From positions 1 to 64,000 of IMG/VR virus record IMGVR_UViG_3300025520_000001: a stretch of 64,000 bases of DNA. One strand, written 5' to 3'. This DNA is from a virus. Position numbers and translations under genes: made by a program. This document shows positions 3,853 to 63,784 of this stretch, piece by piece; positions within the stretch are counted from its first letter, which is position 1; every line of letters begins with the position of its first letter. A model generated the notes under the pieces. The model was not told the DNA's origin. It saw only the letters and a program-made list of their open reading frames with translations, and did not search any database.

Positions 3853-3922
3853 TCCAAAGGAACACGAATCAATATCCCTAGATGTCTAGGGATTGATTCG
3901 GATAAGAATACGGTTCTTACAA

Positions 3923-4330
3923 TTAATTGTCAGAGGGCGTCTTGATGGTGAACTCATCGGACGCCAACATCTGATTGACCAACTTGTCGAGATACCCCTC
4001 GTTCGGGTGCTGCTCCTGAACTTCCTTGAGGATCTCGGCGTATGTCGCGTGGGCCTTATCCTTGTCACGGATATTGATAGACAAGCAATATTCGCCCGTG
4101 TCATAGTTGTGAGCCTGGCCATTCGGCACAACCGGATTATAGGTGATGGTGATAGAGTATTCGTACTTCGGTTCCACCTTCTTGACAGGCGTCTTCTTAA
4201 CACCCTTCTTCTTGATGGCCTTCTTTAAAGCTTTCTGAGCTTCCGGATTGGCAAGAAATTCTTCAATTTTTACAGATAGCACTTTCTCGCAGGCCAGAAA
4301 AAACCTGCTAGTAACGATATGAATTGCCAT
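3923..4330 (-). CDS. hypothetical protein
   Basis: ORF track 135 aa; abuts 4332..4826. Confidence 0.7.
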   Translation of the reverse strand: MAIHIVTSRFFLACEKVLSVKIEEFLANPEAQKALKKAIKKKGVKKTPVKKVEPKYEYSITITYNPVVPNGQAHNYDTGEYCLSINIRDKDKAHATYAEILKEVQEQHPNEGYLDKLVNQMLASDEFTIKTPSDN

Positions 4331-4331
4331 A

Positions 4332-4826
4332 TTACGCGAGTCCTTTGGTGATTGATTGAATGTAGCTACTCAGCAACATTTCTTCTTCACCAGTGTTAAA
4401 GCGGATGGTGATCAGTGGATCGAATCCATCAGCGATGATGCTTTTTAGCACAGAGAGTTTCTCGAGCTCAAGCTCGTTGTGCTGCATAGCAAGCTCTGGC
4501 CCCAAGTTCTTATTGATTTTGGTCTGCAGTGCGGTAAGCTCAACTGCTCGACGAAGCCGTTCTTTGACGGAGGAGTCGTCGTCGATTGGATGTTGCTTTT
4601 GCGCACGCTTATGCAAGAGTTCTGCGAAAGTATTCTGAAGTGCTTCAGAGGCTTGTTTCTGCTGTTCGTATAACCCCTGCAAAGATGTTTCTACATCAGC
4701 TTTTGCCTTTTCGGCTACTTCTGCTCGCTCCTTCATAGAAAGATATCGAGCCCAAGCAATCAACGCTGCGATTATGGCAAATACACCAGACAAGAAGCAA
4801 AGCACATTGACAAGCAATTGCATCAC
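4332..4826 (-). CDS. membrane-anchored coiled-coil protein
   Basis: 164 aa; N-terminal hydrophobic helix LLVNVLCFLSGVFAIIAALIAWA followed by a charged helical region. Confidence 0.7.
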   Translation of the reverse strand: MMQLLVNVLCFLSGVFAIIAALIAWARYLSMKERAEVAEKAKADVETSLQGLYEQQKQASEALQNTFAELLHKRAQKQHPIDDDSSVKERLRRAVELTALQTKINKNLGPELAMQHNELELEKLSVLKSIIADGFDPLITIRFNTGEEEMLLSSYIQSITKGLA

Positions 4827-4859
4827 AACTCCTTTTATTTGTTGTTTATGATTTCTGAA

Positions 4860-5489
4860 TTATTCTACATCTAGATTATCGAGGAATGTTTCTGATTCAG
4901 TTGGAGACATTTCCTCGAGGGCCTTAATCAGTTCTTCAGAAGAACCAATCTCAGTCGCCTTTGACAAGACGTAGGTGTAAAATTCCTCGTCTGTGGTTTC
5001 AGTCTTCTTAAGCTTCTTTTTCCACGCCGCTAGCTTCTTCTTATCTACGTGATGGCGCCCGCGATTAAGTTCCGGTGGCACCATTCGAGTATTTGAAGCA
5101 GAGTATCCTTTCGAGTTGTCCTTCCGGTCCGGGGAAAGTACTTGTCCAGTTTTAGCTTCTGCAGCATGCGTCTGACGGATAATGGACTTGCGAGATCCAA
5201 GGCCAGAAGACTTCTTATGAGCGGTACCGTTTTTACCTTTTTGGCGTCTAAGGGCGTCGTCTGCCACTTTGTGCTCATGGAGATAGTGACCAACCTTTTT
5301 CTTATTAGAGGCTAGCTTCTTTAGACAAGAAGAGCAGCGCCCGCTAGGATTGCTCTTATTTTTCGAGGGCTTACCGCATCGAGGGCACGACTTAATCAAC
5401 TCTTCGATCTCTTCCTCGGCTGCAATGTCTCGCGCTGTCTTAAGTAACTGCTCTAACTTCTCTAGAACTGAAATGGTCTGGTCGGTCAT
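4860..5489 (-). CDS. Lys-rich zinc-ribbon protein, weak HNH_3-like C-terminal motif
   Basis: 209 aa. CPRCGKPSKNKSNPSGRCSSC; SPDRKDNSKGYSASNTRMVPPELN resembles D..DN...N..V...N of HNH_3 but lacks the first His. Confidence 0.55.
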   Translation of the reverse strand: MTDQTISVLEKLEQLLKTARDIAAEEEIEELIKSCPRCGKPSKNKSNPSGRCSSCLKKLASNKKKVGHYLHEHKVADDALRRQKGKNGTAHKKSSGLGSRKSIIRQTHAAEAKTGQVLSPDRKDNSKGYSASNTRMVPPELNRGRHHVDKKKLAAWKKKLKKTETTDEEFYTYVLSKATEIGSSEELIKALEEMSPTESETFLDNLDVE

Positions 5490-5505
5490 AGACCTTAATT
5501 ATACA

Positions 5506-5652
5506 CTATGGTGTATCCATATATCGGGCAATCACCATTTTAGCAACTCTATTTCGGTCTGTTGCAAACTTAAAAGCCAAAGAGCTGCATAAGCGCAGAG
5601 ACCGAAGGATGCCGAGTGCCCTGTATACTGAAAGTACTTCATCTGGAGGCAT
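5506..5652 (-). CDS. small protein, LxLxS mini-protein family candidate
   Basis: Internal ATG of ORF 5506..5706. MPPDEVLSVYRALGILRSLRLCSSLAFKFATDRNRV fits the family motif. Confidence 0.3.
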   Translation of the reverse strand: MPPDEVLSVYRALGILRSLRLCSSLAFKFATDRNRVAKMVIARYMDTP

Positions 5653-5702
5653 ACGATCCTTCGGTCTCTGCGCCCACTGCAAAACTTGACCCTTAGGCAC
5701 GT

Positions 5703-6125
5703 TCAATAGTTGATTGCGTCATCGATGTCGGCGAAGTAGTGAATGCCGGGAGCACACGCTTCGCTACTGAGCTCAAAAGTGCCCTTAGGCGTCACGATTT
5801 CGCCCGTTCGATAGACAAAAGAGTGATCATGACTACTATAACTGGGCTTGTAACACATGTCGCCTATGTATCGGCTAGCGTAGGAGTATGCGTAATTTAT
5901 ACCAAGGGAACGGTTCAGGTAGAACTGAGCCAGAACCAAAGCCTTTGAAGTCCTGCGCTTATTGGTTCGATCTATGCCGTCGAAAGCATTAACGTTGTAC
6001 TGTCCCATAATCTGGAGCATTACCAACACTTGACGAAGCTCACCTCGTTCGCTACGATACGTCTTCTTCCATCCAATGATGGGCTTCTTCAAGCCCATTC
6101 CAGCCGGCACTTGCTTAATCGTCAT
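5703..6125 (-). CDS. hypothetical protein
   Basis: ORF track 140 aa; C-terminal CAPGIHYFADIDDA motif seen in other phage proteins. Confidence 0.7.
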   Translation of the reverse strand: MTIKQVPAGMGLKKPIIGWKKTYRSERGELRQVLVMLQIMGQYNVNAFDGIDRTNKRRTSKALVLAQFYLNRSLGINYAYSYASRYIGDMCYKPSYSSHDHSFVYRTGEIVTPKGTFELSSEACAPGIHYFADIDDAINY

Positions 6126-6137
6126 AGCCTATCCTTA

Positions 6138-7541: not shown

Positions 7542-7580
7542 TTAGTGTCCTTTGCTATGAAACATCTGGTGATACATCAC

Positions 7581-7592
7581 ATTATATTCGGA
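7581..7592 (-). promoter_or_regulatory. promoter-like box TCCGAATATAAT
   Basis: Minus-sense TTATCCGAATATAATGTG lies 40 nt upstream of the ATG at 7541 and contains a perfect TATAAT. Confidence 0.5.
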
Positions 7593-7599
7593 TAAGAAT

Positions 7600-8229: not shown

Positions 8230-8256
8230 ACGTTTCCTTAGTTGGATTGCTAACTA

Positions 8257-9567: not shown

Positions 9568-9719
9568 TTATCTTGAGTTTCCTTACTGCGGGTTTGTACA
9601 ACGTGTTGTCATCGTTTCGGAAAAGAACTACGGTACAACTGCAACATACAAGGCCTTATAATATCTAGGCTTTGTGAACACGTCTTGCGTCTTATGCGTA
9701 ATCATCGTTTCGGAAAAGT

Positions 9720-12722: not shown

Positions 12723-13423
12723 AAATCCTTAGGGTTCCACTTGTGGACGCCAGCGCGGTAAGGCCAATACTTTCTTCTTAAAGCTTTAAGGTGCTGCTTC
12801 TTCTTGGCCGCGGAAAATTCACCTATGCGCTTGCAATGCTTGCACGGTTTGATAACTAGAATACGTTCGGTGGAGCGCATTTTAGCCATTAGCCGTTTAT
12901 TTTTGCTTCTAAAAACCTTGTGGCCGTTTCCTAAGCATTTAGGGCATTGATGGTCATCAGGTTTTGAGTTTATCCAGGCTTTTTCAAAGGCGTAGTTAAT
13001 TCGTTTAGCTTCCGCCCAGTCCTTATATACCTGATCCGTCTCTGGACAACTGTGCTTAACTCCTGCTGTGGAAACTAATCTGAAGCGCCCATTTTCGCGC
13101 ACCCACAGGAGGTTAGTCGCCTTACAGTACTTACACCTACCAGCACTTATGTCAGTTATATCTGTTTCGCCATTTTCAGTGCAGGTATGAGGCAAGCCGT
13201 ATTGCTCGACAAGCTGAAAATAATATCCGTGACGCACCAGATTCAGGTCGTTACGACCACATTTGAGGCACCAACCCGGGAAGATGTCCTCTTTTGTACT
13301 TTGACACTTGTGGTGTTGACCCGGCTTGTTTTTAAGGATTAAAACTGGCTTCTTCTCGAAGAAATCCCAGCTCCAATGCGCATCTGCGCCACAATGGCGA
13401 CAATTAGTAAGATTCATCTGCAT
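12719..13423 (-). CDS. multi zinc-ribbon repeat protein
   Basis: ORF 12719..13663 trimmed to the ATG at 13423 because the upstream part reads through tRNA-like sequences. Three CxxC-(27-30)-HxC repeats plus CPKC / CKHC. Confidence 0.65.
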   Translation of the reverse strand: MQMNLTNCRHCGADAHWSWDFFEKKPVLILKNKPGQHHKCQSTKEDIFPGWCLKCGRNDLNLVRHGYYFQLVEQYGLPHTCTENGETDITDISAGRCKYCKATNLLWVRENGRFRLVSTAGVKHSCPETDQVYKDWAEAKRINYAFEKAWINSKPDDHQCPKCLGNGHKVFRSKNKRLMAKMRSTERILVIKPCKHCKRIGEFSAAKKKQHLKALRRKYWPYRAGVHKWNPKDL

Positions 13424-19287: not shown

Positions 19288-19341
19288 GGACAGGTTGTAT
19301 TTGATTCGGAAAAATCGACTCTTACTGGGGTGTACTGCATT

Positions 19342-21398: not shown

Positions 21399-21586
21399 TC
21401 GCTTCTCTTTTGAGGGGGTTCCGGGAGTTCCACTTTAAGAGCTTTCGCTAGAAGCTGAAGGCTCTCTACAGTCCAGTCGCGCAGTTCATTTGCGTAGTTT
21501 AAAGCATTCTCCGCGTTGTAGGCTGCTCGACAACTATCACAGGTGTAGCTGTAATTACATTTACATTCACTCATATTGGTCCCCAC
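21392..21586 (-). CDS. hypothetical Cys-containing protein
   Basis: ORF track 64 aa. CKCNYSYTCDSC. Confidence 0.55.
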   Translation of the reverse strand: MGTNMSECKCNYSYTCDSCRAAYNAENALNYANELRDWTVESLQLLAKALKVELPEPPQKRSEW

Positions 21587-22023
21587 TTTCCTTCGCGGGC
21601 CGCTTTGGCCAGCTTGTCACAGTGCTCGTTGTGCTCATCGCCGTTGTGACCTCTGACCCAGCGTTGTCGTGCATCTACTCTGTTATATGCAGCCTGCAGA
21701 TCACGCTGCAACCCTCGTAGGTGTTCTGCCTTGCAGCGCCACTTTCCAGAGGCATAGCCAAGGACTAATTGTGAGTCTGCAACCAAAACAACTTGTGCAT
21801 TCTGCCAGCTATTTTGCTGAATAATTGCCTCAACACGCTTTAATCCTTCGACGGCGGCTGTCAACTCTGCCACATTGTTGGTTGCTTTAGGCAAGTATCC
21901 GCTACCGTCTTCTAGCGGAACTTTGTCGACTACAATGCGCCAGCCATACCCACCATCTGATTCCATGGTGTTACCGGAACCATCACTGAAAACTTCTATT
22001 AAAGTTGGTTTATTCATGTTCAT
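21571..22023 (-). CDS. rnhA: ribonuclease HI
   Basis: 150 aa. FSDGSGN (Asp), NNVAELTA (Glu), LVADSQLV (Asp), GHNGDEHNEHCDKLA. Confidence 0.85.
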   Translation of the reverse strand: MNMNKPTLIEVFSDGSGNTMESDGGYGWRIVVDKVPLEDGSGYLPKATNNVAELTAAVEGLKRVEAIIQQNSWQNAQVVLVADSQLVLGYASGKWRCKAEHLRGLQRDLQAAYNRVDARQRWVRGHNGDEHNEHCDKLAKAAREGKWGPI

Positions 22024-22029: not shown

Positions 22030-22043
22030 ATTATACTTTTGGA
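22030..22043 (-). promoter_or_regulatory. promoter-like box TCCAAAAGTATAAT abutting the ATG (leaderless configuration)
   Basis: Minus-sense TTTTCCAAAAGTATAATCATTTCATG. TATAAT ends 6 nt before the rnhA ATG. Confidence 0.4.
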
Positions 22044-26502: not shown

Positions 26503-26532
26503 GTCCGTTGTTCTAGAATCGTTTCGGATTGG

Positions 26533-26964: not shown

Positions 26965-26965
26965 G

Positions 26966-27038
26966 TAGCGGACGTCGGAGTCGAACCGACTGTTCTCAGG
27001 TTATGAGCCTGCTGTGTAAACCGTTTCACTCGCCCGCT
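26966..27038 (-). tRNA. tRNA-Met: tRNA-Met/Ile2-type (anticodon CAU)
   Basis: Minus-sense AGCGGGC..GTG-AAACGGTTTA-CAC..GCAGG-CTCATAA-CCTGA..GTCGGTTCGACTCCGAC-GTCCGCT. 3-bp D-stem; one mismatch in the anticodon stem. Confidence 0.8.
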
Positions 27039-28534: not shown

Positions 28535-28838
28535 TGTTACTTTTTTGCTGACGATTCTTAAACAGCTCCCATGGCCCAATTTCATTAGGTTCGTCACTTA
28601 GACCGATGGCGTTTTTATCTGTATACGGAAGCGCGGAATTGTGCCAATAGGCTTCATCCTCTTCGCGATACACCTTGATTTCATACCATTCGCCATCTGC
28701 GGCAAACGCGGTGCAGTTGAGTTCCGTATCGTCAATGGCTGCTTGGATGGCGTTTCGTAGGTTCTCAAGTGCTTCCTTGTTGCCCACAATAAAGGCATGA
28801 TCGTGATTATAGACTTGTGCGTAGATATGAAGTTTCAT
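28524..28838 (-). CDS. hypothetical protein
   Basis: ORF track 104 aa. Confidence 0.65.
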   Translation of the reverse strand: MKLHIYAQVYNHDHAFIVGNKEALENLRNAIQAAIDDTELNCTAFAADGEWYEIKVYREEDEAYWHNSALPYTDKNAIGLSDEPNEIGPWELFKNRQQKSNNGA

Positions 28839-30011: not shown

Positions 30012-30026
30012 ACCCTTTCATACACT

Positions 30027-30038
30027 CTTATATTCGGA
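30027..30038 (-). promoter_or_regulatory. promoter-like box TCCGAATATAAG
   Basis: Minus-sense CCTTATCCGAATATAAGAGTG lies about 15-25 nt upstream of the 30011/30002 start. Confidence 0.45.
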
Positions 30039-30045
30039 TAAGGAA

Positions 30046-31413: not shown

Positions 31414-31527
31414 TTACTTAATCAATAAGTTATAAAGTACACCGAGTTCGGCGTAGCTTCTTTTTCGAAGAAGCCCAATCTTCCAAAGTAGGCATAAGAA
31501 ATTCCACTTTTCAATTATGCTGCTCAT
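31414..31527 (-). CDS. LxL mini-protein family candidate (37 aa)
   Basis: Hand-translated MSSIIEKWNFLCLLWKIGLLRKRSYAELGVLYNLLIK. Stop lies 2 nt from the tRNA 5' end. Contains CTACGCCGAAC. Confidence 0.3.
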   Translation of the reverse strand: MSSIIEKWNFLCLLWKIGLLRKRSYAELGVLYNLLIK

Positions 31528-34971: not shown

Positions 34972-35126
34972 TGTTTACCTTTCTAAAAGAGACCCTACCC
35001 AATGGACCTGTTCAGGCTAGCACCTTATTAGGGACTTACTCCATGGATCCGCGTCCGTGACTTGTGTGTTGTCTCACGCTTAAAACACGGTGTTTGGGTC
35101 AGAACCATCGCATGTACGAATATCGT

Positions 35127-35164
35127 TTCGGATAAGGGCGTGGGCGCGCCCGAAGCAGTGTCAG
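35127..35164 (-). promoter_or_regulatory. regulatory cassette, variant copy (CTGACACTGCTTCGG + CCGAAA box)
   Basis: Minus-sense GGCTGACACTGCTTCGGGCGCGCCCACGCCCTTATCCGAAACGATATTCG, about 150 nt upstream of the kinase ATG. Confidence 0.45.
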
Positions 35165-36661: not shown

Positions 36662-36772
36662 ACATTCCTTTTACTTGTTTAAACTACGAGAAAACTGCCA
36701 CAGTAACAACTTCCCAACCCATTTGGGACACAAGATGTTTGTTTCGGATTCGTATCGTAAGACAACGAGTGG

Positions 36773-39259: not shown

Positions 39260-39499
39260 TTACCCACCGTTGACGAGTCTCAACGCTTCCTCGGCGGTGA
39301 AACCGGCTTTGAGAGCTGCAGCGAACTGATTGGCTTTCATCTTCAGTTCATCAGCCTTCGCCAACTTCTTCTCTTCTGCGCGAAGGAGGGTCCACACGCT
39401 CTTGGCCTCCCCGTTGCTCGGCGGGCACTTTGTAATCTTCGTACCTGCAGGAATAACAGTCTGCGTCTTGATGTGCACGTGTATCTCCTTGTGGATCAA
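39260..39499 (-). CDS. hypothetical protein with KITKCP motif
   Basis: 79 aa. IPAGTKITKCPPSNGEA, compare 10097..10357. Confidence 0.6.
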   Translation of the reverse strand: MIHKEIHVHIKTQTVIPAGTKITKCPPSNGEAKSVWTLLRAEEKKLAKADELKMKANQFAAALKAGFTAEEALRLVNGG

Positions 39500-39543
39500 T
39501 ATAGGTTCGGTTTGGCTTTTAGGTTGCGCAGTTGCCTGTTAAT

Positions 39544-41054: not shown

Positions 41055-41297
41055 TTATTGTTTACTTCTCAACTCAAGTAGTTCTGCTCTCAGCAGCATC
41101 ACGCTACGCTCTAGGTGCTTCACTTCATCTTGATTGTTGTATGGCACCAACTCGCTTGGGTCCATAGCACTCTGGATATTAGTATTCAGTTTGAGATTCT
41201 TAAAGCACCTACATCCACCGTTGGTTCGCATGCAGCCGCGTGGTCTAATGCAAGCAAATGTGCAACTTTGATCCCCGCAACCCGGTTCTCGTTCCAT
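41055..41297 (-). CDS. Cys-rich hypothetical protein
   Basis: ATG at 41297 (MEREPGCGDQSCTFACIRPRGCMRTNGGCRCF...) in ORF 41055..41372. The promoter-like box abuts the ATG. Confidence 0.55.
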   Translation of the reverse strand: MEREPGCGDQSCTFACIRPRGCMRTNGGCRCFKNLKLNTNIQSAMDPSELVPYNNQDEVKHLERSVMLLRAELLELRSKQ

Positions 41298-41323
41298 GTG
41301 TTCTAATACGTTCGGAAATGTAT

Positions 41324-42527: not shown

Positions 42528-42544
42528 GACCAATGCTTTCTTTG

Positions 42545-42644
42545 TGGAGAAGCCGGGACTCGAACCCGGTTCAATCGCCGCTAACTATGCCGTAACCCAG
42601 CATTGCCCTTTCTGCGAGGCGATTACAGCGCTGGGAGCTTCCCC
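42545..42644 (-). ncRNA. 100-nt tRNA-like RNA with G3:U70 acceptor and non-tRNA core
   Basis: GGGGAAG...CCGGGTTCGAGTCCCGG-CTTCTCC-A. Acceptor and T-arm are canonical. The 59-nt core has a 7-bp stem AATCGCC/GGCGATT and a possible pseudoknot CCCAGC/GCTGGG. Confidence 0.45.
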
Positions 42645-42652
42645 ATTACTAC

Positions 42653-42985
42653 TTACTTCTCGAACGGCAGACCACAACCGTATTCCTTCTCCTTCAGCCT
42701 GGTCAGTGTGTTCTGCACGACTGTCTTGTCGACTGGTGACAACTTCTTTTCATCGAGCATTGCGATGTTGTAGCAGAGCCCACGCAGCCTCGCGATGACC
42801 TTGAGATATTTCCTCTCAGTCTTTGACTTCGCCTTCTTCTTGGACTTTTTATGAGTCTTCGCTTCACATTTGCTACACACTTTACCGCTATTGCCAATGA
42901 AATACTTGGTCCCGACTTGTTTGCTACACACCGAGCAGTAGGGTGCTTCCCAGCCCTTGGTGTCAAAAACAGTTACTTTAATCAA
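42653..42985 (-). CDS. zinc-ribbon, Lys-rich hypothetical protein
   Basis: 110 aa. CSVCSKQ...CSKCEAK. Confidence 0.65.
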   Translation of the reverse strand: MIKVTVFDTKGWEAPYCSVCSKQVGTKYFIGNSGKVCSKCEAKTHKKSKKKAKSKTERKYLKVIARLRGLCYNIAMLDEKKLSPVDKTVVQNTLTRLKEKEYGCGLPFEK

Positions 42986-42999: not shown

Positions 43000-43347
43000 T
43001 TACCAAATCACCTTCTGCTTGTGGAACTTCTTGTAAGCCACCATGCAAAGCAGCATTACCACGCAGAAGCTGAGGAAGTCGAAGAGATTACGTGCTGGGG
43101 TCGCAGTCGTTAAAACCATGACCTTCATTGACAGCAGCCGCATTAGCAAGCCAACGGCGATTACAAGCACACAGAACATGCTCCAAGGAGGGAAGCTCTC
43201 CAGCGTCGCGAGCAGGGCAATTGCCGTCGCCACCACACTCTTTGACGAGCCAACAGGGACCTTCACCAAAGTAGGTACCGCAGACTGGACACTTCGACAT
43301 TTGCGTTCCTCCACGTAGTCTTGCCACCGAATTTGCCGGTTGCGCAT
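43000..43347 (-). CDS. membrane protein ORF (alternative frame, overlaps 43088..43300)
   Basis: ORF 43000..43353. ATG at 43347 lies 5 nt after TAGAAT of a CCGAAC box (leaderless-type). Three hydrophobic segments. Confidence 0.35.
   Translation of the reverse strand: MRNRQIRWQDYVEERKCRSVQSAVPTLVKVPVGSSKSVVATAIALLATLESFPPWSMFCVLVIAVGLLMRLLSMKVMVLTTATPARNLFDFLSFCVVMLLCMVAYKKFHKQKVIW
43088..43300 (-). CDS. Cys-rich small protein (70 aa)
   Basis: ATG at 43300 preceded by GGAGGA at 6 nt. MSKCPVCGTYFGEGPCWLVKECGGDGNCP... Confidence 0.5.
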   Translation of the reverse strand: MSKCPVCGTYFGEGPCWLVKECGGDGNCPARDAGELPSLEHVLCACNRRWLANAAAVNEGHGFNDCDPST

Positions 43348-43372
43348 GTGCAATTCTATGTTCGGAAACGTG

Positions 43373-45188: not shown

Positions 45189-45389
45189 TTACCGGGTGAA
45201 CCGCCAATAAGACGGGTTGGGGTTGAGCTCTAACGCAGTAAAGACTGCGTTCGCGCAGGTCTTCGGGCTCATGGTGCGAAGAACCTCATCGAGCACCACC
45301 TGCTGAACAAGCGGATGCTGATGCTGACGCAGAAAACCAACAACGCCGCGAAGAAGAGTGATGCGCTTCATGTGTATCTCCTTGTGCAA
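45189..45389 (-). CDS. hypothetical protein
   Basis: ORF track 66 aa. Confidence 0.5.
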   Translation of the reverse strand: MHKEIHMKRITLLRGVVGFLRQHQHPLVQQVVLDEVLRTMSPKTCANAVFTALELNPNPSYWRFTR

Positions 45390-45408
45390 GGATATGCGTT
45401 CGGAAATG

Positions 45409-48372: not shown

Positions 48373-48636
48373 GGCTTACGCGAGCTTATCGACGCACAGC
48401 TTAGCTCCTCGACGTGCAAGCAAATCCACGCCACGGGCGTTGCCACCGTTAGGACCGCCTTTCGCAAACCTCGTACTTCCACTTCTCCATGGCCGCAATA
48501 GAAGGCAACCACTTCCACGAAGTGCTGCAGGTTCACTTATGCCTCAGCCTAACCTACTGTAGTTGCTGTACTAGAGTCGTGTTCATACAGTAGGACTCTC
48601 GCAATCTGAGGTCTTCGTTCGACATGTGGGTATACG

Positions 48637-48684
48637 TTCGGATTAGTACTGTACTCGTGGGGTGCGCCGGCGTAGCAGTGTCAG
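48637..48684 (-). promoter_or_regulatory. regulatory cassette (CTGACACTGCTACGC + CCGAACGTATAC)
   Basis: gcgtagcagtgtcag at 48670-48684; ttcgga at 48637-48642. Immediately downstream (minus sense) of the 48701-48742 terminator. Confidence 0.55.
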
Positions 48685-48760: not shown

Positions 48761-50578
48761 TTAGTACTGACAACCGGGCCAGGTAATAGGATACCAAGCG
48801 CCATTAAAATAGCAACCCTGGTCTACAACCTGTCCACGGTACATCAGATCAAAAACGACACCATTCTGACGATCCACCATACTGAGACCAAAGATAGCCT
48901 TAGGTGCATTGAGTGGATTACCGGGAGCTGGAGGAAGCTGAGACCAGCCAGAGTATGTCGTATTACCATAGCGACCATTGCTATATAGATCGTTTTGGTC
49001 GTTGAGGACATACATTCCGTTCACGTCACCATTAGATCGACCGTTGTTATTGGCAACTCCATTCGGCCAACCGTGAATACCTTCAATTGCGTTAGCTGAG
49101 ATTGCCCACGCTTTTCCAAAAGAACTATCATGTGGTGCAAACACGAGTTCGCGTGTCGTGCGGGAACGAGAACCATCGCTGTATATTAAGCTGCAGTAAT
49201 AGGTGTTGCCCCAACCACTGATATTGCGCATAGATCCACACGAGACCGCGCCAACGCGTCCAGTAAGGATTGACGCTGTTCCAGTGAAATCTCCCAATCT
49301 GCTAGGTGCGAGCAGTTGCTTGGTTATAGTCCAAGCTGACGCACTGTCAGGACCCCAAGACGAGCTTCCGCAGTTGAATGCAGCATACAGGGTGTTTCCA
49401 CAGCTAACATACACCGGCGTAACTCCCGCTGGAATAGTCGCGACAACAAGACTGGGAGTAACCGTAAATGCATCAATACCTACAGCAACAATCCGGTCGG
49501 AGATGGGATCATAAGTGGCTGTATGAATTGAAACTATGCCAGAATTGCTTGATAAAACTCTGCCACGAAAAGTCCAGTTCCTGCCATTATCATCAGAGGT
49601 GAACACCGCGTTGTACATGAACACCCACGTCTTATTCCTGACATGATCTCTAACGATCGCGGGAGTAGGAGTGTAGAGTTCACTCCCAGGGAGTGTAGCG
49701 TAGTTGCCAGTCTGCGGTGTATTGGGAGGCACGCGAGCGTCGAACCAGACGTTCGTAGGACTAGTGAACGTGTACTGAAAAGGAACCCAGATTTGGTTCT
49801 GCGTCTGAAGGTGCAGAATCGCGTAGCAGTTTGCGATATCGTAACCCTGACAGTCATACTGCATGGCAGCAGGTGACGATCTACTTGTACGCATGAAACG
49901 TAAGTTACCCACAGTATCTACGTCTACGCAGTCGATTGAATCCTTTACTGTGTTATCAGCGCAAGCAAAAGGAGTGTGACCTAAACTACGGTCAGGAAAT
50001 GCTGCGTGCCGTTGGGGCTCATACCAACCATACAAGTACTGCTTTCTGACAATAGGCCAAGAAGCAAGGCCACCTTGAGTAGCGTTCAGACGAGACGCGG
50101 GTGTGTTTAAGCTACCAGTGCCGGAACCAGTTCCGGTTAGCGCATTCATTGCAGAAGCGAAGATAGCGTGCACTGCATCATGCCCCGGAAGATCACCAGA
50201 GAACTGAGTCGATGTGCCGATGGATGCCTGGAAATTTCCATTAGCGCATGACGCATATCCTGTGCCAACGGTGATAACTGAAAAGGATGACTGGCAGGAC
50301 GTGGCGCTGGTCGTACCAGCGTAATAATAGCGATACTTAGAGCCAGAAGCTCTCAGCATTGAGAGTGCTTGGTTGACAATGCCAATGGGAACTGGAATGC
50401 CACCGGGTGGAGGAGGAATACCTGGAGGCCAAATAGTAGAAGGTACTGATGAATGGACATATACAGGAACGTCGATTACAGTTCCGTTAGGCCATGACGC
50501 ACTTGAAAGCTCCGAGAAAGCCTGAGCTTGAGCAACAACAGAGAACATGAGAATACATAAAAATAGAAACTTTTTCAT
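48761..50578 (-). CDS. secreted BNR/Asp-box-containing protein (beta-propeller-like; possible glycosidase or receptor-binding protein)
   Basis: 605 aa. Signal peptide MKKFLFLCILMFSVVAQAQA, Asp-box TSDDNGRNW, rich in G/S/T/N/Y/W. Confidence 0.75.
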   Translation of the reverse strand: MKKFLFLCILMFSVVAQAQAFSELSSASWPNGTVIDVPVYVHSSVPSTIWPPGIPPPPGGIPVPIGIVNQALSMLRASGSKYRYYYAGTTSATSCQSSFSVITVGTGYASCANGNFQASIGTSTQFSGDLPGHDAVHAIFASAMNALTGTGSGTGSLNTPASRLNATQGGLASWPIVRKQYLYGWYEPQRHAAFPDRSLGHTPFACADNTVKDSIDCVDVDTVGNLRFMRTSRSSPAAMQYDCQGYDIANCYAILHLQTQNQIWVPFQYTFTSPTNVWFDARVPPNTPQTGNYATLPGSELYTPTPAIVRDHVRNKTWVFMYNAVFTSDDNGRNWTFRGRVLSSNSGIVSIHTATYDPISDRIVAVGIDAFTVTPSLVVATIPAGVTPVYVSCGNTLYAAFNCGSSSWGPDSASAWTITKQLLAPSRLGDFTGTASILTGRVGAVSCGSMRNISGWGNTYYCSLIYSDGSRSRTTRELVFAPHDSSFGKAWAISANAIEGIHGWPNGVANNNGRSNGDVNGMYVLNDQNDLYSNGRYGNTTYSGWSQLPPAPGNPLNAPKAIFGLSMVDRQNGVVFDLMYRGQVVDQGCYFNGAWYPITWPGCQY

Positions 50579-53966: not shown

Positions 53967-54014
53967 GCCAAAACTCCTTTCTTTATCCAGCGTACATGTG
54001 AATGTACGTTCGGA

Positions 54015-54200
54015 TTAGTCTGCGCTTTCCCGGAAGTACTCGTCAATGCGTTTATTGTTTTGCTCAATAAACTTGTCAAGTACTTTATCCCTACTGTCTT
54101 TAGACCACAAAGATAGTAGGTGGCCGTTGCAGATTAGACAAGCAACAAGTCGCTCTTTTGTTAGGAGATCCGTGTAGGAGACTGGCTTTGCAATGCTCAC
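54015..54200 (-). CDS. LxLxS mini-protein family member
   Basis: ORF track 61 aa. RLVACLICNGHLLSLWSKDSRDKVLDKF. Confidence 0.5.
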   Translation of the reverse strand: MSIAKPVSYTDLLTKERLVACLICNGHLLSLWSKDSRDKVLDKFIEQNNKRIDEYFRESAD

Positions 54201-55150: not shown

Positions 55151-55243
55151 TTGAGACTCCCTCTTCCAAAGTTGTTTGTTGCACTAAAAGAACCATGCGT
55201 GGCTCTCGTTGAGAGTCTAGAACACCTGTGCCGCGCATGGTTG

Positions 55244-55357
55244 TTATACGTTCGGATACGCGCCAGTGTACCACCTAAACTTTTCATACCACGCTTCCTG
55301 TGCTATCTCTCTTTCAGTTTTACGAGAAATAAGTTCAAGCTTGCGAAGCACCGCCAT
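55244..55357 (-). CDS. LxLIS mini-protein family member, N-terminally short (37 aa)
   Basis: MAVLRKLELISRKTEREIAQEAWYEKFRWYTGAYPNV. The family-like sequence YDAVIDL continues upstream without a start codon. A CCGAAC box lies in its last codons. Confidence 0.25.
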   Translation of the reverse strand: MAVLRKLELISRKTEREIAQEAWYEKFRWYTGAYPNV

Positions 55358-55988: not shown

Positions 55989-56010
55989 AAGAAAACAGAG
56001 GTCGCCTCTG
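55989..56010 (-). terminator. terminator-like hairpin inside a 5' leader (attenuator candidate)
   Basis: Minus-sense CAGAGG-CGA-CCTCTG followed by TTTTCTT. Lies between the CCGAAC box (56040) and the ATG at 55959. Confidence 0.45.
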
Positions 56011-56064
56011 TACTCTTCTGGTTGACATGCGATTGTATGTTCGGTTTAGTAACCTAAATTAGCC

Positions 56065-57081: not shown

Positions 57082-57117
57082 GCTGTCCCCTTAGTTGGTT
57101 GTGTAAGCAAATATCTA

Positions 57118-57177
57118 TTCGGAATAGCAAATAGCAGTATAGCGCCGGCGTAGCAGTGTCAGCGGCTATAGCCGCTG
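57118..57177 (-). promoter_or_regulatory. regulatory cassette (hairpin + CTGACACTGCTACGC + CCGAAT box)
   Basis: Hairpin cagcggc-tata-gccgctg at 57160-57177; 15-mer at 57148-57162; ttcgga at 57118-57123. Confidence 0.55.
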
Positions 57178-57662: not shown

Positions 57663-57876
57663 GGTAGTTTCCTTTTTTGTCAACTTTAAGTGGGAACCAA
57701 TTTCCCATCTCGTATCGACAGGTGAATATATGTTCGGATTAGTTCTTCACCTGTAGTTCGACAGCATTATCACTTCTTGTACTTATTCAACAGTACGGCA
57801 CGTGTTTAGTTCCTGATAATGGCGGGACTGGCGAGAGCAAAGAGAGCGGTGAAGGAGCCGATGAGATAGAAGGCGA

Positions 57877-58459: not shown

Positions 58460-58467
58460 AAGTACTC

Positions 58468-58701: not shown

Positions 58702-58728
58702 GCTTTGTTGGGGACAAGCGTATTTATG

Positions 58729-58807
58729 TTCGGTTTAGTACCGAGCCTCAGCGTAGCAGTGTCAGCGCAAACAGTTCCACCCCATCCCCTGTACGAGCGG
58801 GATGGGG
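58729..58807 (-). promoter_or_regulatory. regulatory cassette (hairpin + CTGACACTGCTACGC + CCGAAC box)
   Basis: Hairpin ccccatccc / gggatgggg at 58780-58807; 15-mer at 58751-58765; ttcggt at 58729-58734. Confidence 0.55.
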
Positions 58808-58836
58808 CGGGAACCTGATGGCCTGTGACCTCGAGG

Positions 58837-59292: not shown

Positions 59293-59508
59293 ACTGTTTA
59301 CCTTTCAACTGCATGCTACGTGGTTAGTGTTACGACTACGTTTACGGTTTTAGCTAAGCTTTATTGCTCGCGTTATAACCGTGTTGGGTTGTACTTCATG
59401 GTTGAACTACGACTACGCTTCTTACGACTATGATAGACTTTATTGTCCATCATCATCGTGAATGTTTTTAGGTTCGGAAACGTGAGGTAAGGTGCGGAAC
59501 TAATTACA

Positions 59509-59631: not shown

Positions 59632-59639
59632 ATTTTCTA

Positions 59640-60245: not shown

Positions 60246-60299
60246 ACGAATAGTCCTCACGAGCTTTTACACCCTCCCGTAATTCCCATTAAGTTCGGA

Positions 60300-60650
60300 A
60301 TAGCTACTACACCTCTCTACACACCTACACTAAAATCGACTTACCAACGACTATCCTATATACTCTCCCTTACAGCTATACTAATACTCTGTAATACACA
60401 CTCTATCCCTATCCTCAATACTGTCTATAGGGGAAGGGAGGAATACTCCATATCAGTACTACTCTGTATCCCTAGAGGAGGGAGAAACTAGCCACTTCAA
60501 GCCTGTAACCTGCAGTATTTATTAGGAGAGGTGTGAAGAAAAGTCCAGTGTGGCCGCAGTCACTGCAAGGCCACCTGACTTATCAAGGGCTTACGCTTGG
60601 CCCCATGTGCGCCATCATGCTACATCCCTGTCCCCCTGCATGCCCATATA
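60300..60650 (-). pseudogene. decayed copies of the LxLIS mini-protein family (ORF-free stretch)
   Basis: Minus-sense MQGDRDVA*WRTWGQA*ALDKSGGLAVTAATLDFSSHLS* (compare 60102..60245) and ..VLRIGIECVLQSISIAVRESI*DSRW*. The family motif is interrupted by stops. Confidence 0.35.
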
Positions 60651-60654
60651 TCTG

Positions 60655-60680
60655 TTCGGAGCCCGGCGTAGCAGTGTCAA
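60655..60680 (-). promoter_or_regulatory. regulatory cassette, compact copy (TTGACACTGCTACGC-6 nt-CCGAAC)
   Basis: gcgtagcagtgtcaa at 60666-60680; ttcgga at 60655-60660. Preceded by a polypurine/polypyrimidine imperfect palindrome at 60684-60716. Confidence 0.5.
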
Positions 60681-60723
60681 CACCCTCTTCCTCCCTCCTC
60701 TATAGGGAGAAGGGAGAGAAACA

Positions 60724-61012: not shown

Positions 61013-61013
61013 T

Positions 61014-61285: not shown

Positions 61286-61422
61286 CAGTATCTCCTGTCC
61301 CACAGTATGTCTAGGGTACGCATGCGGGTCTTACGGGAGATAAGCTGCAGTGTGTACAGCATGTAGCTTACATTGATGAGGTGTATGTACTGTTTGTGGT
61401 CTATGCGTTGAGCTATTACCAC
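61285..61422 (-). CDS. LxLIS mini-protein family member (array I-d, 45 aa, GTG start)
   Basis: (M)VIAQRIDHKQYIHLINVSYMLYTLQLISRKTRMRTLDILWDRRY. Confidence 0.4.
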   Translation of the reverse strand: MVIAQRIDHKQYIHLINVSYMLYTLQLISRKTRMRTLDILWDRRY

Positions 61423-61583
61423 AGCGGCATCTCGTCCAGGATGGAGTCATTAGCACTGCGCCTGGTCACCTCAGAAATGAGTCCCAGCTGCATCAGCACG
61501 TATATGAAGTCAGCTATCTTATAACCCTGCTGACGAGAGTACTTGAAATGGGGTTTCCGCTCCCCTTTGTAATTAAAGGTCAT
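61416..61583 (-). CDS. LxLIS mini-protein family member (array I-c, 55 aa)
   Basis: MTFNYKGERKPHFKYSRQQGYKIADFIYVLMQLGLISEVTRRSANDSILDEMPLW. ATG immediately follows the I-b stop. Confidence 0.45.
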   Translation of the reverse strand: MTFNYKGERKPHFKYSRQQGYKIADFIYVLMQLGLISEVTRRSANDSILDEMPLW

Positions 61584-61733
61584 TCAGTAATGGAGGTAGA
61601 TGGCATTGATAGCACGAACTCTAGTCGCCTCAGAGATGAGGCCTAGGATAGAGAGTACGGCCAGGAAGTCGGCCTGGCAGTAATACTCGTCCCAAGTAGA
61701 GTTGTAATTAGCGGTTGAAGTCGACACGGGCAT
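61584..61733 (-). CDS. LxLIS mini-protein family member (array I-b, 49 aa)
   Basis: MPVSTSTANYNSTWDEYYCQADFLAVLSILGLISEATRVRAINAIYLHY. Confidence 0.45.
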   Translation of the reverse strand: MPVSTSTANYNSTWDEYYCQADFLAVLSILGLISEATRVRAINAIYLHY

Positions 61734-61866
61734 AAGAGTTTAAAAGGGCTTTCGTGCGGCTTTCAGCGCCGCAGAGCCTCAGGAAGTACATGGTCCACAG
61801 GATGTAACTGATGGAGGTGCGCTCTAAGAAGGTGAAAGAGCGCCCGCGAGGTTCCTGCGCCTCCAT
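61708..61866 (-). CDS. LxL mini-protein family member (array I-a, 52 aa)
   Basis: MEAQEPRGRSFTFLERTSISYILWTMYFLRLCGAESRTKALLNSYARVDFNR. ATGA overlap with the stop of 61866..62255. Confidence 0.45.
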   Translation of the reverse strand: MEAQEPRGRSFTFLERTSISYILWTMYFLRLCGAESRTKALLNSYARVDFNR

Positions 61867-62255
61867 CAGTGAGAGTCGATGAAGGCCTGGAGCTCTTTCA
61901 CCTTCTCGCTGTAGAGGTGGATGCTGCTGCCGTACTTGTGGAGGTACTCGACGAGTCCCTTGGCGTACTCCTTGGCCTCATTGCCCTGGAGCGTCTCTGC
62001 CTGGCTGATGAGCTTGTCTCCCTCCACATCGCAGACGTGGTAGAGCTTGCCTTCGTGCTCGGAGAGCCAGCTGTTGGTGAAGTCTTCCCACTCTTCCAGC
62101 TCGCTGGACTCCTCGAGGAGCTCGGTCTCAGCAGTGACCATGAGCTCATGGTCGATGTAGCTGTAGCACCAGCCGCCATCCCAGGCATACTTGACGTGGC
62201 TCTCATTCACCTGCTCAGTGAACTGCTGCTTCAGCTGCTCGAGCTTGTCGCTCAT
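61866..62255 (-). CDS. acidic hypothetical protein
   Basis: ATG at 62255 (MSDKLEQLKQQF...) with GCAAGGAGCAAAGCC upstream. ORF 61866..62306. Confidence 0.75.
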   Translation of the reverse strand: MSDKLEQLKQQFTEQVNESHVKYAWDGGWCYSYIDHELMVTAETELLEESSELEEWEDFTNSWLSEHEGKLYHVCDVEGDKLISQAETLQGNEAKEYAKGLVEYLHKYGSSIHLYSEKVKELQAFIDSH

Positions 62256-62293
62256 GGCTTTGCTCCTTGCTAGGGCGTGTGAGCACTTATACG

Positions 62294-62356
62294 TTCGGCG
62301 AAGCAACTGCCCCTAGGCGTAGCAGTGTCAGCCGGCTCTGTACTAGCAGCCGGCTG
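62294..62356 (-). promoter_or_regulatory. regulatory cassette (hairpin + CTGACACTGCTACGC + CCGAACGTATAAG)
   Basis: Hairpin cagccggc...gccggctg at 62329-62356; 15-mer at 62317-62331; ttcggc at 62294-62299. Confidence 0.55.
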
Positions 62357-62459
62357 CACCACTCTGAGCCAAGTCATCTCCGGAGCAGGGAGCACGCTCA
62401 GACTGGAGGGAGTGCCGTCCCTCGTTTCCTAGACTCGCCTCTACGCTCGCTCCTACTAC

Positions 62460-62924
62460 TTACTTCACGAAGGCCCGCAGGTGCTCGGGCAGCTTGCTGA
62501 TGTCGAGCTGGACCTTCGGCTTGAGCTCTTCGAGGCGCTTGTCGATCTCCGCCTGCACGGCCAGCTTGGCCTCGGGGTCGGTCACCACGGAAAGCAGGAC
62601 CTTGAGGTTCTTGAGCTGTTCGTCACCGCTGCCGGTGCGGGAACCGGGATTCTTCGGGGCGTAGGTGACGCCACCGTTCATCCGCTTGTCCTTCCGCACC
62701 CAGTTGTTGGTGAGGCCGGGGATGTACTTCTTCAGCGAGATCTCGTCGTTGCCGCCCGAGTTCTTCTGCACCTCGCCGTTGAGGAAGCCGAGGAGGATGC
62801 GCTCGTGGACCTTTTCCGTCTGGTCCTTGGTCCACTGCGTGGTCGACGGCACCGGGCCATCGAGCTTGCCATCGTTGCCGAAGACGGAGAGAACCGCGAG
62901 GTACACCAATTCGCCCTGAGTCAT
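62460..62924 (-). CDS. NWVRKDKR-family protein, paralog 3
   Basis: ATG at 62924 (MTQGELVYLAV...) with CAAGGAGCAATACC upstream. TNNWVRKDKRMNGGVTYAPKNPGSRTGSGDEQLKNL...LPEHLRAFV. Confidence 0.8.
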   Translation of the reverse strand: MTQGELVYLAVLSVFGNDGKLDGPVPSTTQWTKDQTEKVHERILLGFLNGEVQKNSGGNDEISLKKYIPGLTNNWVRKDKRMNGGVTYAPKNPGSRTGSGDEQLKNLKVLLSVVTDPEAKLAVQAEIDKRLEELKPKVQLDISKLPEHLRAFVK

Positions 62925-63008
62925 GGTATTGCTCCTTGCTTGGACTACGTTCGAGTTGGACTGCACTATGATGAACTCTATGCTTCGTTCATCGTGACCT
63001 AATATAGG

Positions 63009-63063
63009 TTCGGATGAGTCGGAGCGGGTGCGTAGCAGTGTCAGCGGGCATGGTGACCCGCTG
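63009..63063 (-). promoter_or_regulatory. regulatory cassette (hairpin + CTGACACTGCTACGC + CCGAACCTATATT)
   Basis: Hairpin cagcggg-catggtga-cccgctg at 63042-63063; 15-mer at 63030-63044; ttcgga at 63009-63014. Confidence 0.55.
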
Positions 63064-63090
63064 CATAGCTTACTTCGTGGGAGTAGTGAG

Positions 63091-63309
63091 TTAGGCTGCG
63101 CGGCGGGTGTTCTGGTCGAGGTCCAGCGCCTTGATGCCCTTGCCGTTGAGGAAGCCGAGCATCACCGGGTCAGAGACCTGGACAGCGTCGTCGAACCACG
63201 AGGCGAGCGGCTTGTCGCTCTCCACCTCGTCGAACTCAGCACGCTGGAAGAAGGGGTCGAAGGAGCCGAGCAGGACGCTGAGAGAGTTGGGGTACGAGAT
63301 GAAGTGCAT
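63091..63309 (-). CDS. short protein related to the N-terminal domain of the NW[LV]RKDKR family
   Basis: 72 aa. DPVMLGFLNGKGI compares with HERILLGFLNGEV of 62460..62924. CCAAGGAGAGCAACC upstream. Confidence 0.6.
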   Translation of the reverse strand: MHFISYPNSLSVLLGSFDPFFQRAEFDEVESDKPLASWFDDAVQVSDPVMLGFLNGKGIKALDLDQNTRRAA

Positions 63310-63387
63310 GGTTGCTCTCCTTGGGTTGATATGTTGATGTGTGTTCGGTTCAGCGAGCAGGGATATAGAGTCCCCGCTCTTAGCTAC

Positions 63388-63687
63388 TTAGTTAAGGCAC
63401 CACTTGCCGCCGTGCCTGTGGTACTTGTCAGTGCCACTCGCAGTTACTCCGCCTTCTTTGAACAGCTCGATGAGTTCTTTGTCAGCGCCTTTCTTCTTCA
63501 GCCACTCAGCGCCTTTCTCGACCGCCGCCTCATCATCAGCGGCTTCAGCAACCTCGAGATCGCACTCCCAGTAGACCTCAAAGTCTTCCTGAGAATCGTC
63601 CTCAAAGGTGAGAGTGAGCATGGTGAGCTGCTTGGGGTCATCCAAGTTCGGCTCGAAACCAACCATGAGGTGTTTGATAGTCTTCAA
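63388..63687 (-). CDS. acidic hypothetical protein
   Basis: ORF track 99 aa. TTG start with AAAGG upstream (alternative ATG at 63666). Confidence 0.6.
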   Translation of the reverse strand: MKTIKHLMVGFEPNLDDPKQLTMLTLTFEDDSQEDFEVYWECDLEVAEAADDEAAVEKGAEWLKKKGADKELIELFKEGGVTASGTDKYHRHGGKWCLN

Positions 63688-63740
63688 TCAGTTGCCTTTC
63701 AGTCAGTGGGCTTTATTACCTTATGACTTAATAATATAAG

Positions 63741-63784
63741 TTCGGTGTAGTGCGTAGCAGTGTCAGTGGGCACCTGGCCCACTG
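63741..63784 (-). promoter_or_regulatory. regulatory cassette (hairpin + CTGACACTGCTACGC-6 nt-CCGAACTTATATT)
   Basis: Hairpin cagtgggc-acct-ggcccactg at 63764-63784; 15-mer at 63752-63766; ttcggt at 63741-63746. Confidence 0.55.

Follow-up and report, generated by a model that had tools for sequence, protein, structure and literature searches.

Which enzyme reads an element that recurs in front of the genes of an uncultured phage and has no consistent -35 sequence upstream of it? The question is raised by a 64,000-nucleotide stretch of viral DNA (IMG/VR record IMGVR_UViG_3300025520_000001, positions 1 to 64,000), called here the window. The minus strand carries nearly all the window genes, and the pentamer CCGAA, followed by an A/T-rich hexamer, recurs upstream of them on that strand. 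An earlier reading, made without database searches (the sequence-only reading), took the element for a phage-specific promoter and proposed that a sigma-like protein encoded at 2099-2647 could recognize it. The analysis described here indicates that the CCGAA motif is very probably a promoter. The fuller statement, that this promoter class is read by the host core RNA polymerase together with the 182-amino-acid (aa) sigma-like protein, is our leading explanation, held at evenly balanced confidence from the sequence relationships set out below.

The window is part of a 172.5-kilobase (kb) metagenomic contig, Logan SRR6212578_6315, with window position 64000 at position 65028 of the record and window position 1 at ~129027. 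The DNA covered amounts to ~84 kb of this contig plus scattered pieces of relatives. The phage is a member of an uncultured lineage in which genomes measure about 150-178 kb and a probable tail sheath is among the structural genes. No close deposited phage was found: the best protein matches to deposited phages are below 30% identity, a tblastn search with the 182-aa sigma-like protein against them had no match, and megablast returned a tRNA fragment only, so that a cultured relative could not serve for comparison. A literature search on CCGAAC, TCCGAA and the 15-mer described below found nothing relevant.

Strand bias, layout and probable start of the CCGAA element

The bare pentamer is not enriched overall (122 occurrences of TTCGG/CCGAA against 117 expected), and its distribution is far from random. 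The hexamer TCCGAA has 21 intergenic and 5 coding copies on the gene-sense (minus) strand, against 0 and 9 on the plus strand. All 15 copies of CCGAACNTA are on the minus strand, 14 of them between genes. Judged by a second-order Markov model of this intergenic DNA, the hexamers TCCGAA (21 against 3.9 expected, p about 1e-9) and CCGAAC (18 against 2.9) rank first and second for over-representation. A weight matrix made from the sites reaches at least 12 bits at 37 positions on the minus strand and at 1 on the plus strand, with about 1 in Markov shuffles. Because the matrix was trained on the sites, all gene-sense CCGAA pentamers were also examined without selection. Among the 37 that are intergenic there is an A at +8 in 28, a C at -5 in 25 and a pyrimidine-purine pair (Y+17/R+18) in 25; the 50 in coding DNA have these features in 12, 15 and 14 cases, which is the background level. 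The region shows no excess of two-hexamer sigma-70 promoters (13 against an expected 15, and 12 against an expected 13).

The refined layout is C-T-W-W-T-CCGA(A/T)-NN-[T/G/A]-A-W-W-W-W-N5-Y-R. After CCGAA come C, A or T, then any base, a hexamer whose second base is A and whose other bases are mostly T or A, five variable bases and the Y-R pair; the two bases preceding the hexamer are variable at CCGAA sites. When 33 sites are aligned on CCGAA, C-5 is present in 30, A+8 in all 33, Y+17 in 28 and R+18 in 30, with another pyrimidine position after it. The element comes in three flavours, CTTATCCGAATATAAT/G, TTTTCCGAAACGAT with a GATnnn hexamer, and CTAATCCGAAC(G/A)TATA at 39-64 kb of the window, and the distance from CCGAA to Y-R is identical in all of them. 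The sequence-only reading was right that there is no consistent -35, yet C-T-W-W-T is conserved just upstream of CCGAA and a 15-mer lies further upstream of seven sites.

Where would transcription begin? Most likely it begins at the R, 18 nucleotides (nt) downstream of the first C of CCGAA, a position that we infer rather than measure. The start is placed there because an ATG stands exactly at +18 in several relatives (L005, with CCGAT-ca-TATAAA-tacac-ATG; L012, twice; L019) and in the window, and because Shine-Dalgarno sequences, where they are close, are never nearer than 12-15 nt to CCGAA. In the window the ATG at +18 opens an 80-aa Cys-rich open reading frame (ORF) at 41055-41297 (CCGAA at 41315) and a 115-aa ORF at 43000-43347 (CCGAA at 43365). 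Both are candidate leaderless genes, which a simple gene caller missed or called differently. In L012 and L014 the orthologue of p244, the first gene of the operon that ends with the sigma-like gene, starts 13 nt past CCGAA, which leaves no space for a ribosome-binding site. Sites with a close Shine-Dalgarno sequence have the cassette CA-CAAGGAGATACACATG after the hexamer. Counted from a start at this place, CCGAA would span roughly -18 to -14, with the A/T-rich hexamer at roughly -11 to -6. Terminators of the canonical hairpin-plus-T kind are found ahead of the promoters, and the core motif itself is not accompanied by a conserved hairpin. The identification as a promoter made in the sequence-only reading is thus upheld by the orientation shared with the genes, the intergenic position, the -10-like hexamer with its invariant A, the Y-R pair at a fixed distance, the leaderless starts, the conservation in relatives and the lack of an excess of two-hexamer sigma-70 promoters.

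Conservation in relatives and an upstream 15-mer

The comparison drew on 21 loci that surround the sigma-like gene, taken from IMG/VR and two genome bins and including some duplicates. As CCGAA or CCGAT, the motif is present at orthologous places in 15 non-identical loci with this gene, and on a single strand. In nearly every relative examined, the spacer ahead of the p244 orthologue has CCGAA or CCGAT with an A/T box, and the remainder of that spacer cannot be aligned. The MoxR-like gene gives a similar picture: its protein is 92% identical in three genomes, and upstream of it TCT(T/A)(T/A)TCCGAAA is the only conserved island. In the intergenic DNA of 17 non-redundant loci, CCGA[AT]-NN-[TGA]A[TA][AT] occurs 44 times on the strand of the sigma gene and once on the other. 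Counted by gene in the related loci, the motif is upstream of 31 of 194 plus-strand genes and of 0 of 79 minus-strand genes. More distant relatives favour CCGATTCGATATA. Two contigs of the lineage, L022 (LNEN01000305.1) and L023 (JABXKB010000001.1), are binned in a Cytophagales and a Promethearchaeota metagenome-assembled genome, respectively. The Cytophagales contig is also an IMG/VR viral contig, and both cases are probably mis-binning and not evidence of the host.

The 15-mer was found upstream of seven window promoters, at 48.6 kb and, where the block begins, at 57-64 kb, six times exactly as CTGACACTGCTACGC and once as the variant TTGACACTGCTACGC. The exact copies, all on the minus strand, are at 63752..63766, 63030..63044, 62317..62331, 58751..58765, 57148..57162 and 48670..48684, and the variant is at 60666..60680 on the same strand. 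The distances from 15-mer to CCGAA are 6, 6, 16, 17, 18, 25 and 28 nt, and as a rule a canonical terminator or a GC-rich hairpin immediately precedes the 15-mer. In IMG/VR the 15-mer was detected in 104 stretches (L024-L127), and the GC content of the relatives ranges from 31 to 49%. By a rough estimate about 100 single chance matches are expected in a collection of that size. Several copies per contig are present in the contigs of L004, L005, L007, L011, L014 and L016-L019. One recurrent family with a single copy of the 15-mer looks unrelated.

Among 120 distinct 15-mer contexts, 40 have a strict CCGAW promoter within 85 nt downstream in the same sense, and none has one upstream or in antisense. 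The distances cluster at 5-8, 14-18, 25-29 and 35-38 nt, and the seven of the window fit these clusters. The spacing has a period of about 10.5 base pairs (bp) with a resultant length of 0.52-0.59, and 0 of 5000 jittered controls were as high; since related genomes share homologous sites that do not count as independent, this test overstates the significance. Measured from the predicted start, the centre of the 15-mer falls at about -32, -42, -52 or -62. Only 28 of the 120 contexts have a stem of 7 bp or more. The helically phased distances suggest a bound protein that touches the polymerase, and the 15-mer looks like the putative site of a protein that must face it. Class I and II activator-dependent promoters with CRP-type phasing offer a parallel, in that their site distances also differ by whole helical turns. 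Unlike CRP-type sites, the 15-mer is not palindromic and it is exact across genomes that share ~50% protein identity. Two other roles were considered and rejected. The 15-mer has the wrong spacing for a sigma-54 promoter, with the GG/GC register off by one, and at 22-44 nt from the hexamer it is misplaced for the -35 of a sigma-70 promoter.

The sigma-like protein and the enzyme behind the promoters

By profile comparison the 182-aa protein (2099..2647, minus strand) is a sigma-70-family homologue reduced to region 2, and it is a candidate specificity factor. As a single sequence it has no match in Pfam, in PHROG (E<=0.001) or among PDB sequences. A profile of the broadened family matches PDB sequences of sigma-H (3mzy_A, E=1.2e-5), SigE domain 2 (8b3z, 0.0048) and SigK (8vjl, 0.045), followed by FliA and sigma-F. 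Three remote members have sub-threshold Pfam Sigma70_r2 matches (E 0.005-0.015) exactly at the homologous stretch. These two results agree with the region-2 assignment that the sequence-only reading had given to this ORF. The AlphaFold2 model has a predicted local distance difference test score (pLDDT) of 78, and its top Foldseek matches are weak, all with E >0.07. They include SigE domain 2 (prob 0.84-0.95; template modelling score 0.51-0.69 on the target), models of SigD and SigH, and many phage sigma factors of BFVD. A region 4 helix-turn-helix was not detected in the lineage proteins, which are 127-192 aa long with a conserved core that ends at about residue 127; remote family members of 300-390 aa keep a C-terminal helix-turn-helix. 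Its metagenomic homologues number 400, and the contigs that carry them reach 178 kb; the family is a small one that, among 1.84 billion proteins, forms 53 clusters at 50% identity.

The genes p244 (3112-3846) and p166 (2628-3128) lie upstream of the sigma-like gene on the minus strand (2628..3846). The order p244, p166, sigma-like gene is kept, with end-to-start overlaps, in all the relatives checked. In relatives whose p244 has just 22-49% identity, the sigma-like protein keeps 50-85%, an unusual degree of conservation. The possibility that p244 is a sliding clamp was considered and dropped, as its confident AlphaFold model (pLDDT 86) has no fold match in the PDB and its profile matches nothing. 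A role for p166 as a gp33-like protein or a second sigma part was dropped as well; its profile matches nothing and it is unrelated to the sigma family.

The sequence-only reading compared the protein with T4 gp55, which consists of sigma regions 2.1-2.4 and forms a split sigma with gp33 (PMC2988020). The likeness holds for the architecture, since both are small region-2-only factors (185 aa for gp55 and 182 aa here), but no specific sequence similarity to gp55 was found. No PHROG was matched at E<=0.001 and no gp55 chain is among the PDB profile matches. A relaxed PHROG scan of 43 family members gave one weak match, to a generic sigma phrog, and in Foldseek a phiW-14 gp55 model ranked second with prob 0.20. 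By its profile matches the family is nearer to the cellular sigma-H, SigE and SigK than to gp55. Unlike in T4, no gp33 homologue or sliding clamp was recognized beside the 182-aa gene. The T4 late promoter is the 8-bp TATAAATA, whereas the element here is CCGAW-NN-hexamer and would reach to about -18. T4 gp55 serves the structural (late) genes, whereas the CCGAA motif would drive the non-structural genes and the structural ones carry TGnTATAAT.

These TGnTATAAT sequences make up a second, host-like class. The window belongs to a co-directional non-structural block of small early-type ORFs, tRNAs and genes for nucleotide metabolism and replication, and gene direction flips just past the window's right end. 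Beyond that point one leftward gene encodes a virion structural protein (phrog_1004, E=1e-21) and another a 738-aa protein; the counterpart of the latter in a related contig, ~730 aa long, gave a weak tail-sheath match. Upstream of the leftward genes are TGGTATAAT, TGTTATAAT and TGATATAAT (minus strand, L021 1045, 1116 and 5860), three sites in 5.9 kb compared with none in the 64-kb window, where TGNTATAAT is absent from both strands. In relatives TGnTATAAT is upstream of the endonuclease VII-like gene at most loci, of a head-protease gene and of other genes on the opposite strand. In the window a TATAAT box at 5498..5503 (minus strand) precedes the endonuclease VII-like gene, the same gene that has TGnTATAAT in relatives. 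An ATG often stands 6-8 nt past the TGnTATAAT or TATAAT box, a spacing that implies leaderless mRNAs. Two further examples in the window are TATAAT-N6-ATG at 22030..22035 (minus strand), which would give a leaderless 150-aa ORF (21571-22023), and a TATAAT box at 28806-28811 ahead of a leaderless 66-aa ORF. As such boxes stand at structural and endonuclease VII genes, the phage also uses host-like extended -10 promoters.

The extended -10 promoters of sigma-70 are also a close parallel for the CCGAA class itself. The geometry and the start distance are the same, with a short duplex element upstream of the -10 in place of the -35; the A conserved as the second base of the hexamer and the predicted start 6-8 nt further on fit the extended -10 pattern. 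The differences are in the bases: extended -10 promoters have TG at -15/-14, whereas the CCGAA class has CCGAW at about -18 to -14 and a 2-nt gap, with no TG there, and the first base of its hexamer is often G or A. Other phages redirect the host core enzyme to a phage-specific consensus with proteins of the sigma family, such as SPO1 gp28 and gp33/34 and phiEco32 gp36. Those factors keep a region-4-like part and read -35/-10 or another -10 motif; the protein of this lineage is without region 4. Thermus phage P23-45 and coliphage N4 have phage-specific early and middle promoters and use host-type extended -10 promoters without a -35 for late genes; in these phages, and in phiKZ, phage enzymes read the early or middle genes and the host enzyme reads the late ones. 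The genome of the present phage is partitioned in a similar way. In P23-45 and N4 phage RNA polymerases read the specific class; the ORFs examined here yielded no such polymerase gene, and a -10 signature of sigma type is retained in the motif.

How might these pieces fit together? In the reading that we favour, the CCGAA element would be the core promoter of the long co-directional non-structural block. The invariant A at position 2 of the hexamer is a hallmark of the bacterial -10, so the enzyme is most likely the host multisubunit core RNA polymerase; the invariant A, the Y-R start and the hairpin-plus-T terminators are all signs of a bacterial-type multisubunit polymerase. Because CCGAW occupies the place of the extended -10 element but is not TG, and the block has no -35, a phage determinant on the host core would be needed, one that replaces recognition of the -35 with reading of CCGAW beside the -10 box. 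The leading candidate would be the gp55-like, region-2-only sigma of ORF 2099-2647, and it is plausible that this protein reads the CCGAA promoter. Transcription running on from the TATAAT promoter of the endonuclease VII gene might provide the first expression of the sigma-like gene, which its own CCGAA promoter would later raise. That TATAAT promoter is on the same strand in the window, ~1.6 kb upstream; in those relatives in which one was located, the distance is 1.7-3.8 kb. A protein bound to the 15-mer would contact the polymerase at phased distances. In a bolder form of this scheme, which we regard as doubtful, the system would be split and modular: the region-2 sigma would read CCGAW and the -10, and CTGACACTGCTACGC would be bound by a second, highly conserved protein that might enter the cell along with the DNA. 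It is likewise a tentative idea that the 15-mer protein replaces the contacts of -35 and region 4 from any phase-matched distance of ~5-50 bp.

Several points weigh against the favoured reading. The protein is tied to the motif by parsimony only, and the start site is one that we infer from the sequence. An hhalign comparison of the narrow family alignment with a hand-entered sequence of E. coli sigma-70 region 2 showed no similarity. As a CCGAA promoter also precedes the sigma-like gene, its first expression needs another source. The CCGAA block opens with small early-type genes, which in most phages are read at once by the host holoenzyme or an injected enzyme and not by a sigma factor produced during infection. 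On the T4 model the tail-sheath, virion-protein and endonuclease VII genes, which have TGnTATAAT or TATAAT in front of them, would be the target of a gp55-like factor. Finally, as the survey took in ~84 kb of the 172.5-kb contig and pieces of relatives, a gene for a phage RNA polymerase may lie elsewhere.

There are also rival explanations. The CCGAA promoters could be read by the host sigma-70 holoenzyme with a phage DNA-binding co-activator on CCGAW, alone or with the 15-mer, in the manner of T4 MotA/AsiA. Region 2 of sigma-70 would then read TAWWWW, the co-activator would stand in for the -35 contact, and the 182-aa protein would serve the TGnTATAAT structural promoters, as gp55 serves TATAAATA. 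The invariant A of sigma-70 type and the Y-R start are what such a promoter would have, the phased 15-mer resembles an activator site, early-type genes require an enzyme that is immediately available, and the genes with TGnTATAAT (tail sheath, virion protein, head protease, endonuclease VII) are the class that gp55 serves in T4. However, TGnTATAAT is a standard extended -10 that the host holoenzyme can read unaided, so a new sigma is unneeded there. The fixed 2-nt gap between CCGAW and the hexamer also fits a single sigma-like reader better than a separate activator, and no DNA-binding activator was identified, p244 and p166 having no recognizable fold or family. We consider the co-activator unlikely, though a serious contender. 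The same standing is given to a phage-encoded RNA polymerase, virion-borne or early, with its gene in the remaining genome and the A/T box as its melting region. It would account for a block with a phage motif next to a structural block with host-like extended -10 promoters, and for first genes of early type that would need an enzyme at infection. About 88 kb of the contig lies outside the DNA covered, and relatives have large ORFs without a family match (1096, 908 and 887 aa). Yet no polymerase domain was found in the ORFs examined from the window, its flanks and the relatives. The signal is short and split, with CCGAW, one invariant A and ~10 informative positions, unlike the contiguous 17-23 bp of T7-type promoters. 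There is no fixed hairpin of N4 type, since the upstream hairpins vary in stem, loop and distance and look terminator-like, and a conserved sigma-family protein only makes sense with a multisubunit core enzyme. The least probable explanation by a wide measure, and one to which we give very little credence, is that the motif is a DNA operator or an RNA-level signal for processing or translational control. Strand-specific intergenic motifs can be RNA signals, some sites are more than 250 nt from the next start codon, and a terminator-like hairpin directly follows the site at 56044. Such a signal would leave the -10-like hexamer with its invariant A, the Y-R at a fixed distance and the start codons exactly at +18 in several genomes unexplained; the sites come after terminators, no conserved secondary structure or Rfam match was found, and the block has no other enriched promoter signal.

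Particular candidates for a polymerase were also looked at and set aside. The 605-aa ORF at 48761-50578 has no match in Pfam, PHROG or PDB, and the large ORFs of relatives (1096, 908, 887 and ~730 aa) have no polymerase domain. CCGAAC was considered as a -35 of the extracytoplasmic function type (GAAC) with a -10 downstream, but the spacing to the conserved CAcaTG is ~11 nt and not 16-17.

Promoter map of the window and its meaning

All 27 plus-strand TTCGG sites listed in the sequence-only reading exist, although the one given as 57732 is off by one (TTCGG starts at 57733). As members of the motif, 26 score at least 9 bits; the site at 31447 lacks the flanking signature and is therefore probably not a site. 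Those at 60655 and 63344 are weak. Sites absent from that list are a clear one at 39510 and weaker ones, inside ORF calls, at 12870, 14907, 21127 and 61142. In the following account the predicted promoters, all on the minus strand, are given with the position weight matrix (PWM) score in bits.

The first promoter of the co-directional block is CTACA-CCGAA-CT-TATATT-ATTAA-G at 63727..63750 (PWM 20.3), 6 nt past a 15-mer. It is followed by CTCAT-CCGAA-CC-TATATT-AGGTC-A at 62995..63018 (20.2) and by 62280..62303 (17.7), with a 129-aa gene downstream. Paralogous 154-aa genes at window 62460-62924 and L021 8326-8790 open the block, and internal stretches of their DNA are nearly identical. A weak promoter at 60641..60664 (9.7) lies 6 nt past the variant TTGACACTGCTACGC and has an ATG at +18, and the one at 60280..60303 (13.8) has the weaker hexamer TAATGG. 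Next are 59459..59482 (21.0), 58715..58738 (20.8), 17 nt past a 15-mer, and the best-matching site of all, CTAAT-CCGAA-CA-TATATT-CACCT-G at 57719..57742 (25.2). The promoter at 57104..57127 (21.1) has the CCGAAT form and is 25 nt past a 15-mer. At 56026..56049 (21.5) a terminator scan found a terminator-like hairpin (56011-55995) in the leader. This hairpin with its T run (ACAGAGGCGACCTCTGT TTTCTT; 55995-56011, minus strand) comes only ~15 nt after the point where the 56044 promoter is predicted to start transcription, and ahead of a 144-aa gene. Attenuation is one conceivable role; alternatively, a short RNA may be the product of this promoter. The promoters at 55237..55260 (21.3) and 53995..54018 (21.1) follow, the latter with a 132-aa gene downstream.

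At 48623..48646 (23.0) the order is a strong intrinsic terminator (48742-48710), the 15-mer, 28 nt and the promoter. The promoters at 45385..45408 (16.6) and 39492..39515 (19.2) are each followed by a leader cassette, CACAAGGAGATACACATG in the first, where it was seen by alignment, and CACAAGGAGATACAC in the second, which is the one absent from the earlier list. The cassette CCGAAnnnATATnnnnnCACAAGGAGAT(A/G)(C/T)AC(A/G)TG is at window 39465-39515 and 45360-45408 and also in relatives (L001 ~17696, L002 ~18541, L003 ~17785), so that promoter plus leader is repeated in the genome and kept in relatives. The two promoters with an ATG at +18 are at 43347..43370 (21.4), just past tRNA-Tyr and opening the 115-aa ORF, and at 41297..41320 (18.6), opening the 80-aa Cys-rich ORF as a candidate leaderless mRNA. 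Further along are 36729..36752 (17.5) in the CCGAAAC form, 35113..35136 (21.4) and 26509..26532 (16.8) in the CCGAAACGAT form, 30019..30042 (18.2) in the CTTATCCGAATATAAG form, and a weaker promoter at 19291..19314 (12.3) with a 118-aa gene downstream. The MoxR-like ATPase gene has two, a distal one at 9695..9718 (20.7) and a proximal one at 9602..9625 (17.9), which is the sole conserved island in the spacer alignment of three genomes. The promoter at 7573..7596 (CTTATCCGAATATAATG, 18.1) precedes the DUF2201/VWA gene. The last, at 3883..3906 (17.9), would serve the operon of p244, p166 and the sigma-like gene. An inverted repeat, ATCCCTAGA-CA-TCTAGGGAT, at 3874-3893 is centred on its predicted start and could be an autoregulatory operator.

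Besides the MoxR-like ATPase and the DUF2201/VWA protein, the genes recognized in the window encode a Clp-type protease, an ATP-dependent DNA ligase, the large subunit of ribonucleotide reductase, ThyX, the endonuclease VII-like protein, a metallophosphatase and a trypsin-like peptidase. ARAGORN finds 10 tRNA genes, of which Rfam confirms 9; the tRNA-Met at 26965-27038 is an ARAGORN call that is missing from the Rfam list. ARAGORN also calls a transfer-messenger RNA at 42544-42692, for which there is no Rfam match at gathering score and which is probably a false call. The Rfam scan of the window gave tRNAs only.

What does this promoter class mean for the lineage? It provides a testable promoter grammar for a widespread uncultured lineage, with a consensus, a predicted start and about 30 mapped sites, and the motif map improves the annotation of these genomes, in particular their transcription units and leaderless small ORFs. 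The 182-aa protein represents a new compact branch of the sigma-70 family that has shed region 4, a loss parallel to that in T4 gp55. If the pairing of protein and motif is true, it would be a second, independent region-2-only sigma, with recognition that extends upstream of the -10 box. Such a pairing would be informative about DNA recognition by minimal sigma factors and might be a source of orthogonal expression parts. As a candidate for a new activator site the 15-mer, exact and helically phased, is unusually clean. If the split modular system is true, it would be a sequence-specific counterpart of the clamp/gp33 'mobile enhancer' of T4, and phage-specific promoters would fire at the onset of infection.

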